Sequence record: PZ386951.1
Length of the DNA stretch: 64,000 bases
Reading direction: 5' to 3' (one strand)
DNA from: a phage
Shown: piece after piece, positions 26,982 through 42,589 of the stretch
How the letters are laid out: each line of letters begins with the position of its first letter
Position numbering within the stretch: the stretch's first letter is position 1
Made by a program: the position numbers and the translations under genes
Notes under the pieces: model-generated
Told to the model about the DNA's origin: nothing
Seen by the model: the letters and a program-made list of their open reading frames with translations, nothing else
Databases searched by the model: none

Positions 26982-27344
26982 TTAAAAGAATTTAAATTTT
27001 TTCTTTGACCTTTTATTAAATGCATCTTGTAGTTGCATTGTAATACATTTTTCTACATGAGGAGCTAACTCAGCTTTTCTTTCTTGGTCAAGAACAGCAA
27101 AGTCCATTACAACCTTTCCATCAACCCAATCTAATTTTGTCACATATACAATGTGTGTAGAACCATCTTCTAGTTTAATGACAATCTCCTGGATAACATT
27201 TTCCATAGCGGATTTAATTATCTTAAGAGACTCATTAAAAAGACGTTCTTTTCTTTCTTCTTCCCCCTCCGAAGAGGGGGATTCATCGATAATTTCTAGA
27301 TCTAAATCTAAATCATCTTTATTCATTAAATTCTTCCATATCAC
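26982..27344 (-). CDS. hypothetical protein, gp40 position
   Basis: 120 aa from GTG (or 114 aa from ATG 27324-27326); overlaps uvsX 3' end; a GC hairpin lies inside its 5' region. Confidence 0.5.
   Translation of the reverse strand: MIWKNLMNKDDLDLDLEIIDESPSSEGEEERKERLFNESLKIIKSAMENVIQEIVIKLEDGSTHIVYVTKLDWVDGKVVMDFAVLDQERKAELAPHVEKCITMQLQDAFNKRSKKKFKFF
27273..27292 (-). other. GC stem-loop (CCCCCTC CGAA GAGGGGG) just 3' of uvsX stop, inside the following ORF
   Basis: 7-bp perfect stem with CGAA/UUCG loop. Confidence 0.45.
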
Positions 27345-28500
27345 TTAACTGTTCTAGGTCAGTTTCTAAATCAGCTGCTGATTTACTTTTACTTTCTGGA
27401 GATTTAAATTTTTCAACCTTTGAGTTAATTAATTCATCGACTTCAGCTTCAACAATTTCATTACTATCAATAGCACCTAACTGATAAGCACGTTTAATAG
27501 CATCTCGGAATGGCTGATGTTTAAATAAAGGACCCCAGAATGTAGTGCAGTTAGTATCTTTTGCACGCCAAGATTTTTCTTCGCGAATCATCTCGCCAGT
27601 TTCTTCGTCAAGAAATTCACGAGCATACCAACCATTTTTAGGTTTTACAACAAATCCTAATTCTAGAGCCATATCTAACAATCCAGAATAAGGATCGATG
27701 CCACCGTCAAATTTAACATCAATAAAGAATTTACTTTTTTCTTTAACGGTACGAGATTTTTCTACATTTAGAACAAATTGATACCCCTGAAGATCAGAAC
27801 CATCTTTAATCTGACGTTTACCGATAATGAATACGGTATCAGCCGAATACATTACGCCTGTACCACCTGTCATCACGGTTTTACTAAACATTTCAATTGT
27901 TTCAATTGTATGGTTAACCGCAACACATGGAATATTTTTAATGCTAAAGTAAGGAGTAACAATACGGAATAATGACTTCAGTGATTTAGCACGAGTCATA
28001 TCTGCCACAGATTTTTCATTCAAGGCATCTTCCGTTTCTTTCTTAGAAGCCATATTACCAATTGAATCGATGAATACAATAACTTTTTCACCACGCTCAA
28101 TAGCTTCAAGCTGGTTCACCATATCAATTTTCAGCTGTTCAACTGACTGAATTGGCGTATGAATTACTCGTTCCGGGTCAACTCCCATGGATCGCAAATA
28201 AGCTGGAGTAATACCAAATTCGCTATCATAGAATAGACAAACCGCGTCAGGATATTTGTTCAAATATGCCGCAACCATAGTCAAAGACATATTTGATTTA
28301 AAGTGTTTAGAAGGCCCTGCGAAAATAGTTAAACCAGACTGCATACCGCCATCAATCGCACCAGAAATAGCAATATTAAGCATTGGGATTTTTGTACGGA
28401 TTACATCCTTTTCATTAAAGAATTTAGATGTAGTCAGTTCAGCAGTCATTTTAGAAGTGGAAGCTTTAATCAAACGGGATTTTAAATCTGCAATAGACAT
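27319..28500 (-). CDS. uvsX: UvsX recombinase (RecA-like)
   Basis: 393-aa ORF; MSIADLKSRLIKASTSK... matches recalled T4 UvsX. Confidence 0.92.
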   Translation of the reverse strand: MSIADLKSRLIKASTSKMTAELTTSKFFNEKDVIRTKIPMLNIAISGAIDGGMQSGLTIFAGPSKHFKSNMSLTMVAAYLNKYPDAVCLFYDSEFGITPAYLRSMGVDPERVIHTPIQSVEQLKIDMVNQLEAIERGEKVIVFIDSIGNMASKKETEDALNEKSVADMTRAKSLKSLFRIVTPYFSIKNIPCVAVNHTIETIEMFSKTVMTGGTGVMYSADTVFIIGKRQIKDGSDLQGYQFVLNVEKSRTVKEKSKFFIDVKFDGGIDPYSGLLDMALELGFVVKPKNGWYAREFLDEETGEMIREEKSWRAKDTNCTTFWGPLFKHQPFRDAIKRAYQLGAIDSNEIVEAEVDELINSKVEKFKSPESKSKSAADLETDLEQLSDMEEFNE

Positions 28501-28577
28501 TCATTTTTTCCATAGGCATCATTATATTTTCCTCACTGGTTAAAGATAGAGTAATTATAACACAATAAATTTAGGCA

Positions 28578-29420
28578 TTAATCAACTGCTATTGGATGAA
28601 TAGCATTAAACTTATGAAATGCTTCTGATTTTTCTTTACGCGAAACACACATGCGAAGAACCTTTAGTGGTTCATCTTCTTCACCCAACGATTTTCGTTT
28701 TTCAATATTTGAAGTTTTCCAACGAGCTTGCTCTGGAAACTCTCTATTGATTTGCTCGAGCGCTCTATTATGTTTAGAATTACTACGAATTGAACTGCAC
28801 CCGCCAGGAGCTTGTGCTTTTCCAGATACAACTAGATATTTGAACAAGGCCAAATGCGGATAACCTTGATTAATTAAATTGAGAAATGCATACATATCTT
28901 CACATAAATCAATTTTTCCATACCCAATTTGTTCTGTCGTAAGTTTTCCGAGGTCATACCATGTATTCGTGAATCCATATGAGTTTTCACGATAATTACC
29001 CCAAGATGAAGTAATTTTAAAAATTGGTAGACGAGCATGGCCATGATAATACCCGCAATCCATGGCATCCTCAACGTATTGAATCAATTCATAGAACTGT
29101 TCACGAGTCAATTGATTGACTTTATCTACACATCGGCGATCATCTCTTTTTCGCATTGAACTCATACGAATAGTAGTATCATCGTCAATCATCCAGATTC
29201 GTTGACCTGCATACATATCAGTAATTGCTTTACGAGTACCGGCAATTCCATTAACATCATCAGGAATAGTTACAATTTTAGCTTTAGACCCATAGGCATC
29301 ATAATAAGCTTTTTCTTCATGTTCACGCACTACAATATGCGGTTCATAATCAGTCGGAAACATATCAAGGGCAGAAACTGCCCCTACGCGTTGATAGCTT
29401 GGAATTACGAATTGAATCAT
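28578..29420 (-). CDS. GT-A-fold glycosyltransferase at the beta-gt locus (candidate DNA hmC-glucose modifying enzyme)
   Basis: About 280 aa from MIQFVIPSYQRVG (GT2-like N-terminus) with DxD motif IWMIDDDTTI; does not resemble recalled T4 beta-gt. Confidence 0.6.
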   Translation of the reverse strand: MIQFVIPSYQRVGAVSALDMFPTDYEPHIVVREHEEKAYYDAYGSKAKIVTIPDDVNGIAGTRKAITDMYAGQRIWMIDDDTTIRMSSMRKRDDRRCVDKVNQLTREQFYELIQYVEDAMDCGYYHGHARLPIFKITSSWGNYRENSYGFTNTWYDLGKLTTEQIGYGKIDLCEDMYAFLNLINQGYPHLALFKYLVVSGKAQAPGGCSSIRSNSKHNRALEQINREFPEQARWKTSNIEKRKSLGEEDEPLKVLRMCVSRKEKSEAFHKFNAIHPIAVD

Positions 29421-30157
29421 TTCCACTCACCGTTATAATCTTTTTTCACAATATGAGTTTCGCCAGTATTCCACCAATGATCAACCAAGTAAAAATGACG
29501 AGAATATACATGAAGACTTCCAACATTCCATATAATAGAACCTGCTTTATACTGACGAGTTGAATCGCCTGCATTCAAATCAGATACTAATTTATCTAAT
29601 ACGTATTTTTGCCATGCATAATCATTACGGAATCCGAAGACCACGTCATTTGAGCGCATGCTTACTACTGCATTGACTTTCTTATCACGAATCAGGTACT
29701 GTACTGTATTCGTACACATGAAATCTGACATACCATCTTTATTGTAGTCAAATTGCATGGATGGACGAGTATAAATCATGATACCACGTCGAGAATCAGG
29801 ATTTTGACCAAGTTCAGCTAAACACATGTCATATTGAGCATAGTTATCTTCTGACCAGATAGCCCAACCATAATTCGAGTTAATTTCACCTTTAGAAGAT
29901 GCTACCTGCTGCCAAATCTTTGGTGTTTCACCCGGAATATCTTTAACGAACAAGCTCTTAGATTTATACCATTCAAGTTCACGCTGAATGTATTCATCAT
30001 TAAGAGCGCCAAAAATAAACGGTTCATCTGCTACAAATGATGCGCCAATAATTTCAATAGTTTTAACACCAGTTTTATCAACTACGAAATCTTTTTCTTT
30101 TAATGCAAGCCCCAAATGAAGACGGATTTCTTCAACTGTCATAGAGTCACTAATCAT
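29417..30157 (-). CDS. 42: dCMP hydroxymethylase gp42
   Basis: 246-aa ORF, same length as T4 gp42; thymidylate-synthase-like fold. Confidence 0.9.
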   Translation of the reverse strand: MISDSMTVEEIRLHLGLALKEKDFVVDKTGVKTIEIIGASFVADEPFIFGALNDEYIQRELEWYKSKSLFVKDIPGETPKIWQQVASSKGEINSNYGWAIWSEDNYAQYDMCLAELGQNPDSRRGIMIYTRPSMQFDYNKDGMSDFMCTNTVQYLIRDKKVNAVVSMRSNDVVFGFRNDYAWQKYVLDKLVSDLNAGDSTRQYKAGSIIWNVGSLHVYSRHFYLVDHWWNTGETHIVKKDYNGEWK

Positions 30158-30166
30158 TTAAACCTC

Positions 30167-30314
30167 AATTGATACATTCATATTTAACTTGTAACAGTAA
30201 TAAACCCCAACCTAAAATAATAGTTGGAATCATAAGAGGAACCGTTACACTATAGTATATACTTATTATAACCATCAAGATTAAAAGCAATGCTGCTATA
30301 ATTTTGCTTTTCAT
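30167..30314 (-). CDS. small membrane protein (49 aa)
   Basis: MKSKIIAALLLILMVIISIYYSVTVPLMIPTIILGWGLLLLQ...; ATG overlaps imm stop; below track cut-off. Confidence 0.4.
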
Positions 30315-30562
30315 TCCTTCTCTCTGATGATAATTACCTGATTTGGCTGCGCAGACTTTTTAGTTTCACCTGCAATTGACCAAATAAATGTAATAAACCA
30401 ACCAATAATTGACCAGTTAAACAGTAAAGATGTGAAAAAGATTCCTACTGTCGATTTTGACCCACGCATCAAGGCGATAAACCATGGAAGCATGTATATA
30501 ATAATAGCCAACACGCCTGAAACTAAAACCATAAAAATTGAACCTGCTACTAAAGTTTCCAT
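30311..30562 (-). CDS. imm: Imm superinfection immunity membrane protein
   Basis: 83-aa two-TM protein, same length and position (between 42 and 43) as T4 Imm. Confidence 0.75.
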   Translation of the reverse strand: METLVAGSIFMVLVSGVLAIIIYMLPWFIALMRGSKSTVGIFFTSLLFNWSIIGWFITFIWSIAGETKKSAQPNQVIIIREKE

Positions 30563-30569
30563 GTTTTCC

Positions 30570-30950
30570 TCACTTAGTCAAATTTTTTACACATGAATTA
30601 TAAGAATTCACTACATACTCCATCGGAGCATTTTTACCTGTACGCCATTGATAATTATTAGCCCAATTTGCCCAAAGTTCTGCACAGTAGTTTTCAATTT
30701 TTTCTTCGTGTGTAATTACATCCGAATTACGATATGCTTGAGCAGATTCATCTGGACGAATAGCTTCGTCAAAATTCGCCTGCATTTGTTCTACTGTCTG
30801 CTTTGGAGCTTCTTTATAACACTTGACATTAGGATTATAAAATTTGCTTGAACAGTTTACAATTTTTCCTACATCAGACTGATTTACTACCGGTCCTTGA
30901 GCTACACAACCAGTAAGACCTAATGCAATAATCAAAATAGCGATTTTCAT
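30570..30950 (-). CDS. putative lipoprotein (about 126 aa)
   Basis: Start at ATG 30948-30950 with GGAGAA RBS (track start TTG); signal peptide MKIAILIIALGLTGC. Confidence 0.6.
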   Translation of the reverse strand: MKIAILIIALGLTGCVAQGPVVNQSDVGKIVNCSSKFYNPNVKCYKEAPKQTVEQMQANFDEAIRPDESAQAYRNSDVITHEEKIENYCAELWANWANNYQWRTGKNAPMEYVVNSYNSCVKNLTK

Positions 30951-30986
30951 TTCATTCTCCAAATCTGTATCAGTAGTTGATAGTTG

Positions 30987-41370: not shown

Positions 41371-41388
41371 AAAGGGCCGAAGCCCTTT
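41371..41388 (-). terminator. GC stem-loop (UUCG loop) 3' of a-gt
   Basis: AAAGGGC CGAA GCCCTTT overlapping a-gt stop. Confidence 0.5.
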
Positions 41389-42589
41389 ATTTTGTAATAA
41401 TGTCAAACTGCTCTTTAAAGCAGAAGCTTGAATCTTGATGCTGATACAAAAATTCATATGCTTTTTCTCGCTCACGGTCATAAAGAGCTCGGTCAGATGA
41501 CAGTTCTTTAATACGCTCGAATGTTGATTCCATGTCATTTTCATCAAACCAAATGATACCGCTATCATGAGAAATTAATGGAGTGTTATCAACACGGAAT
41601 TTTAAATTTTCGCCCGTAGATTTCCAAAATACCGGAATTGTTCCACATGCACCAAGCTCGAGATGAGTATATTCTAAAGAGCGCTGTAGATATTTTTTAT
41701 CCAACTTACTCAACTGATAACCAAAACCGGATTTACTCATACGTTCAAGCATTTCGCTATTTACATAACGGTCAAGAATTTGCGTTGGCAAATTAGGAGC
41801 AATTTTAATTTGGTCTACTTGATGAAGACGATAATACTCGTATGGAATTCCTTTTTCTTTAATAGGAATGAACGCTGGAGAACGTTCTAGACCTTCCATA
41901 ATAGTACTTAGTCCTGCAGGTTTAAGATATTTTTCATGAAAATCAAACATCTGATAAAAACCTTTCCATGTAGTCGTACGACCAATCCAACGATTGATAT
42001 TCATGTTAATTTCAGAAACATCTTTCCAGTATGTTGATCGAACCTTTGCAATATCCATCGGAGGCTGAAAGTTATATACGGTCGGTGCTTCTTCAATATC
42101 ATCAAACAGAGAAACAGTTTCTGGATACCACTCTTTCATCAGAACTTTATTAAAATCACCATTATCAGAATGGCTAAAAATAACATCAGCCCGACGAACA
42201 GTTTCTTCTAATCCCAAATTTCGACGCAAAGAAAGAGAAGAATGGTCATGCTGATAAACTACAACACGAACCGAAGGTTTAATGTTATCAATAATTTTTT
42301 TATAGTTATTAATTGTGTCTTCTTCAACTGAAGTAGCAGGAACTGAATTGATAATTAGAATATCACAATCATTTACCAGCTTAAGTGTTTTATCGTATTC
42401 TTTTGCCAATAAAACAGGAATTGAAAATGATTTATAATCATGTGCACAGTTACGAGTAAATGATTTATCTTTAGCATAAACCAAAGTTACTTCATGACCA
42501 TTTTTAATAAACCAATCACGTTGCTCAAGAGAAAATTTAGTTACACCACAACCTTCAAGACCTCGAGCCATAAAAATACATACTTTCAT
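41387..42589 (-). CDS. a-gt: DNA alpha-glucosyltransferase
   Basis: 400-aa ORF; MKVCIFMARGLEGCGVTKFSLEQRDWFIKNGHEVTLVYAKDKSF matches recalled T4 alpha-gt. Confidence 0.9.
   Translation of the reverse strand: MKVCIFMARGLEGCGVTKFSLEQRDWFIKNGHEVTLVYAKDKSFTRNCAHDYKSFSIPVLLAKEYDKTLKLVNDCDILIINSVPATSVEEDTINNYKKIIDNIKPSVRVVVYQHDHSSLSLRRNLGLEETVRRADVIFSHSDNGDFNKVLMKEWYPETVSLFDDIEEAPTVYNFQPPMDIAKVRSTYWKDVSEINMNINRWIGRTTTWKGFYQMFDFHEKYLKPAGLSTIMEGLERSPAFIPIKEKGIPYEYYRLHQVDQIKIAPNLPTQILDRYVNSEMLERMSKSGFGYQLSKLDKKYLQRSLEYTHLELGACGTIPVFWKSTGENLKFRVDNTPLISHDSGIIWFDENDMESTFERIKELSSDRALYDREREKAYEFLYQHQDSSFCFKEQFDIITK

Follow-up and report, generated by a model that had tools for sequence, protein, structure and literature searches.

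Gene order around the glycosyltransferase locus

The window analyzed here, a stretch of 64,000 nucleotides of phage DNA, carries on its minus strand the genes 41 (helicase), 40, uvsX, gt, 42, an open reading frame (ORF) of 49 aa, imm, imm.1 and 43 (DNA polymerase), in this order. The gt gene, referred to below as ba-gt, lies in the slot that beta-gt occupies in T4; the first-pass annotation had placed a 280-aa ORF there, between uvsX and gene 42, and the gene order confirms this. T2 and T6 have the identical order from 41 to 43, with gt between uvsX and gene 42 in the Tequatrovirus replication gene cluster. The 24-kb stretch around ba-gt shows 97.5% identity to Shigella phage ESh24 and similar Tequatroviruses. 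Judged by its sequence, the source genome is that of a T-even phage (Tequatrovirus), an ordinary member of the genus. The features discussed below are summarized in Table 1.

Table 1. Features of the ba-gt locus and the alpha-gt gene, with positions in the window
Feature	Position	Strand	Remarks
uvsX	27319..28500	-	
ba-gt (ggt/TAGT), predicted beta-glucosyl-HMC-alpha-glucosyltransferase, 280 aa, predicted GT-A fold	28578..29420	-	
Codons of D79-D80-D81, predicted DxD-type motif for metal and nucleotide-sugar binding	29178..29186	-	invariant in 49/49 homologues; follows strand E74-78 of the model
ATGA overlap, stop of gene 42 and start of ba-gt	29417..29420	-	read directly from the sequence
Gene 42, dCMP hydroxymethylase, 246-aa ORF	29417..30157	-	PF00303, E = 1e-15; gp42 at the syntenic position in T2, T4 and T6
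alpha-gt, DNA alpha-glucosyltransferase, 400-aa ORF	41387..42589	-	PF11440, E = 4e-237, 786 bits

The ba-gt ORF is intact and encodes, from an ATG at position 29420, a 280-aa protein beginning MIQFVIPSYQR. A GTG start at position 29426 (282 aa), given in the mechanical ORF list, was rejected in favor of this ATG, since the latter is the start annotated in all relatives (T2, EH2, Solly and WL-3) and creates the ATGA overlap with gene 42. The T2, EH2 and Solly annotations have this ATGA as well, and the overlap suggests co-transcription and translational coupling of the two genes. A promoter and terminator scan of positions 28300..30700 returned as many sites as expected from shuffled sequence, with no sign of a separate ba-gt promoter in this interval.

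No homing endonuclease gene is present beside ba-gt in the window, neither in the gap to uvsX (28501..28577) nor at the junction with gene 42 (29417..29420). T4 carries segA between uvsX and beta-gt, while in WL-3 an endonuclease ORF separates gene 42 from ba-gt; the WL-3 ba-gt protein is 100% identical to that of the window. The presence or absence of these genes in the window, T4 and WL-3 shows a turnover of mobile endonucleases at the gt locus.

Two further small genes of this region deserve comment. The 49-aa ORF between gene 42 and imm (30165..30314, minus strand) encodes a strongly hydrophobic product (MKSKIIAALLLILMVIISIYYSV...), and its ATG overlaps the stop codon of imm. It is kept in T4 (L002, 6228..6377; 47/49 residues identical) and in T2, where it is unannotated in the T4 RefSeq entry and in T2 LC348380; the EH2, Solly and WL-3 records list it under no more specific name than "phage protein" or "hypothetical protein". 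The imm.1 homologue (30570..30962, minus strand) is listed with a TTG start (130 aa), while relatives annotate a gene of 381 nt (126 aa), and its true start is probably an internal ATG (MKIAILII...). The imm.1 protein carries a signal sequence (LTGC) resembling that of lipoproteins.

Identity and predicted fold of the ba-gt protein

The ba-gt protein matched PHROG 842, "beta-glucosyl-HMC-alpha-glucosyltransferase", with E = 3e-89 over residues 1-275. It also scored 38.1 bits against the Pfam family PF20691 (TET-associated glycosyltransferase, TAGT), whose curated gathering threshold is 27.5 bits; residues 3-207 aligned with positions 2-205 of the 205 in the profile. An NCBIfam search with this protein matched no family. 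Megablast of positions 28000..30200 yielded 469 phage records with at least 80% query cover, among them several T2 records in which the gene is annotated as b-gt/ggt, "beta-glucosyl-HMC-alpha-glucosyl-transferase". At the protein level, identity was 100% to WL-3 and at least 95% in 472 records; 276 of the 280 residues (98.6%) are shared with the T2 protein and 274 with that of T6 (NC_054907). The proteins of EH2 and Solly are distinguished from that of the window only by K46R and V50I, both at variable positions.

The 98-99% identity to the T2 and T6 enzymes, the matches to PHROG 842 and PF20691 and the lack of similarity to T4 beta-gt (see below) form the basis of the assignment: positions 28578..29420 almost certainly encode a functional ba-gt (ggt, TAGT) of the T2/T6 type. 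Of the two possibilities that the first-pass annotation had left side by side, a T2/T6-type pattern of hmC glycosylation or a distinct sugar modification of the DNA, the former is the one that these data bear out. The gene is long named and has already been sequenced and characterized, so that the finding is correct but already known. The ba-gt genes of T2 and T6 were reportedly cloned and sequenced in 1993. Papers of 2024-2026 have returned to the gene, the fold of its product and its distribution (PMC13390438, PMC13216743, PMC11078745).

For the analysis of conserved residues, homologues were gathered down to about 14% identity and 49 of them were aligned. A sequence search of all PDB chains with the ba-gt protein gave only two chance matches (E > 1); because no family member with a solved structure was detectable by sequence, a predicted model was used (mean pLDDT 92.4, pTM 0.90). 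It consists of a single Rossmann-like alpha/beta/alpha domain with the DxD motif at the end of a central strand, and its structural neighbors are GT-A proteins. The DDD triplet follows the strand of residues 74-78, at the DxD site of GT-A enzymes. The window protein shares R11 (of the PSYxR motif), R63, D79, D80 and D81 with all 49 aligned homologues; D175, in an "ED"-like motif, is found in 43 of them. Both motifs pointed out in the first-pass annotation, VIPSYQR and MIDDDTT, occur in the protein, and its proposal of a GT-A fold with a DxD motif is supported by the predicted structure, the structural neighbors and the 49-sequence alignment. The T6 orthologue was likewise modeled as GT-A with AlphaFold3 and clusters as a sister to GT2 (PMC13216743).

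The inverting GT-A enzymes of family GT2 to which the protein can be compared, i.e. TarS and TarP of S. aureus, AvpGT, SpsA and the catalytic domain of cellulose synthase, share only 7-16% identity with it, and none of the GT2 Pfam models matched the ba-gt protein. The acceptors also differ: a sugar on duplex DNA would be used by ba-gt, while those of the GT2 enzymes are polysaccharides, teichoic acids or lipid-linked sugars.

In T4, segA and a beta-gt gene encoding 351 aa are found between uvsX and gene 42, so that the two glycosyltransferase genes have the same slot in common. T4 beta-gt uses UDP-glucose as the donor and forms a beta-glycosidic bond on hmC-containing DNA, as would ba-gt. The resemblance does not extend to the sequences. 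The best BLASTP match of ba-gt to T4 beta-gt had E = 2.2 over 8 residues, PF09198 (325 bits in T4 beta-gt) had no match in ba-gt, and a tblastn search of the entire window with T4 beta-gt found nothing better than E = 1.5. The first-pass annotation was therefore right in seeing no resemblance to T4 beta-gt. T4 beta-gt is a two-domain GT-B enzyme (PF09198; structure PDB 1JG7, PMC13216743), whereas the ba-gt model comprises a single domain of the GT-A type. The predicted acceptor of ba-gt is the 6-OH of alpha-glucosyl-hmC, and that of T4 beta-gt is the hydroxymethyl group of hmC. The relationship between ba-gt and T4 beta-gt is one of non-orthologous replacement at one locus; the exchange of a GT-B beta-gt for an unrelated GT-A enzyme is a textbook case of such displacement and has been described before.

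Proposed pathway and alternative substrates

The enzymes that would produce the acceptor of ba-gt are encoded in the same window, as indicated by the PF00303 and PF11440 matches at 29417..30157 and 41387..42589, respectively; the score of the latter (786 bits) agrees with the earlier identification of this second gene as alpha-gt. We propose that the gene 42 product makes hm-dCMP, by which hmC would take the place of C in the phage DNA, and that alpha-gt adds an alpha-linked glucose to hmC. The ba-gt enzyme, as predicted from its relatives, would then move a second glucose from host UDP-glucose to the 6-OH of alpha-glucosyl-hmC, forming a beta-1,6 bond and yielding gentiobiosyl-hmC. By analogy with the GT2-like GT-A class, this transfer should proceed with inversion, from UDP-alpha-Glc to a beta product. 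Conservation and comparison with GT2 enzymes suggest that DDD79-81 would bind the UDP pyrophosphate together with a divalent cation, that R11 and R63 would touch the nucleotide-sugar, and that D175 of the "ED" motif is a candidate catalytic base activating the acceptor hydroxyl. Expression of ba-gt together with gene 42 is probable, through the ATGA overlap.

Published data on close relatives are in line with this scheme. Wild-type T6 DNA resists the Brig1 glycosylase in vitro, while T6 lacking ba-gt has DNA with alpha-glucosyl-hmC only and is more sensitive to Brig1 (PMC11078745). The genomes of EH2 and Solly contain alpha-gt and TAGT, the latter syntenic with T4 beta-gt, and by HPLC/MS their DNA contains about one third 5-hmdC, about two thirds alpha-5-gentiobiosyl-mdC and a trace of alpha-5-glc-mdC, with no beta-glucosyl form (PMC13390438).

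Other functions of the protein have to be weighed against these observations. The diverse TAGT family includes many enzymes of phages that have neither alpha-gt nor beta-gt, so that its specificity is not uniform (PMC13216743); a distinct DNA sugar modification, with another donor sugar, another acceptor (e.g. bare hmC) or another linkage, might be imagined on these grounds. The window protein, however, is 98-100% identical to enzymes of phages whose DNA has been chemically characterized as containing gentiobiosyl-hmC, EH2 and Solly being examples (HPLC/MS; PMC13390438), and alpha-gt, the maker of its acceptor, is present in the window. This part of the first-pass proposal found no support, and we consider it very improbable. 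A substrate other than DNA, for instance a polysaccharide of the host envelope or a protein of the phage, would fit the nearest structural neighbors of the model, which are GT2-type enzymes acting on teichoic acids, polysaccharides and lipid-linked sugars. Yet these neighbors are alike in fold only (7-16% identity), ba-gt sits within a cluster of DNA replication and modification genes, where it overlaps gene 42, and deletion of the T6 orthologue alters the DNA modification (PMC11078745); the probability of a non-DNA substrate appears lower still. Both readings were discarded in view of the near-identity of the protein to enzymes from phages with chemically characterized DNA.

For this window, the assignment is of value for annotation only: the phage is a Tequatrovirus of the T2/T6 type, and its DNA should contain hmC, alpha-glucosyl-hmC and gentiobiosyl-hmC, and no beta-glucosyl-hmC. 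The expected modification in turn predicts the behavior of the phage towards modification-dependent defenses. According to published work, the second glucose protects alpha-glucosyl-hmC against glycosylases, Brig1 for example. Gentiobiosyl-hmC is Brig1-resistant in vitro, but it remains open to attack by GmrSD and BrxU-type enzymes (PMC11078745, PMC13216743, PMC13390438).

Expected glycosylation pattern and ba-gt alleles of T2 and T6

The window protein resembles the T2 and T6 enzymes in its full-length identity (98-99%), size (280 aa), position between uvsX and gene 42, partners (alpha-gt and gp42), invariant PSYxR and DDD motifs and predicted GT-A fold. It differs from the T2 protein at four positions, R11 (H in T2), K46 (R), V50 (I) and P251 (S), and from that of T6 NC_054907 by five substitutions and by a complete DDD, which is DD in NC_054907. 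None of these differences from T2 or T6 points to a changed function.

Near-identical enzymes differ widely in the extent of the second glucosylation, which makes the quantitative pattern uncertain from sequence. Gentiobiosyl-hmC amounts to about 5% in T2 (PMC11078745, PMC6024577) versus 72% in T6, and EL, BGP and Geo, which have this gene set too, lie in between, with a 1:2:2 pattern and roughly 40% second glucosylation (PMC13390438). Since the window protein keeps the invariant R11 and is only two residues away from those of EH2 and Solly, we regard it as likely that the DNA of this phage follows the T6-like and not the T2-like quantitative pattern. It would then be expected to contain mostly gentiobiosyl-hmC; plain hmC should make up about a quarter to a third, and beta-glucosyl-hmC should be absent.

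A weak, T2-like allele or expression of the same family would instead give DNA that is mostly mono-alpha-glucosylated, with a few per cent of gentiobiosyl-hmC. The 98.6% identity to the T2 protein and the values found in EL, BGP and Geo speak for it, but the window protein retains P251 as well as R11, the latter present in all 49 family members and replaced by His in T2, and its two differences from the T6-pattern proteins of EH2 and Solly fall at variable positions. Such an outcome is unlikely. We would hardly expect a functionally distinct ba-gt variant, in which the window allele or its expression gives a pattern unlike those of T2, T6 and the measured Durham phages; examples could be longer glucose chains, or transfer to bare hmC that offsets the approximately 25% of hmC untouched by alpha-gt.

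The T2 gene (L001:3579-4421) encodes His at residue 11, where Arg is found in the window (codon 29388..29390), T6, EH2, Solly, WL-3 and all 49 aligned sequences. R11H of T2 might be a hypomorphic allele, which would explain the long-known difference between T2 (about 5%) and T6 (72%) in gentiobiosylation; this explanation was not found stated in the cited literature.

Finally, both public T6 records show an apparent lesion of ba-gt at the sequence level. In MH550421 (L003:3138-3980) codon 10 is an amber TAG, and a shorter CDS of 261 aa is annotated. In NC_054907/AP018814 (L007:921-1760) one Asp of the invariant DDD79-81 is missing, leaving 279 aa; PMC13216743 uses this NC_054907 protein as its "T6 TAGT" reference.
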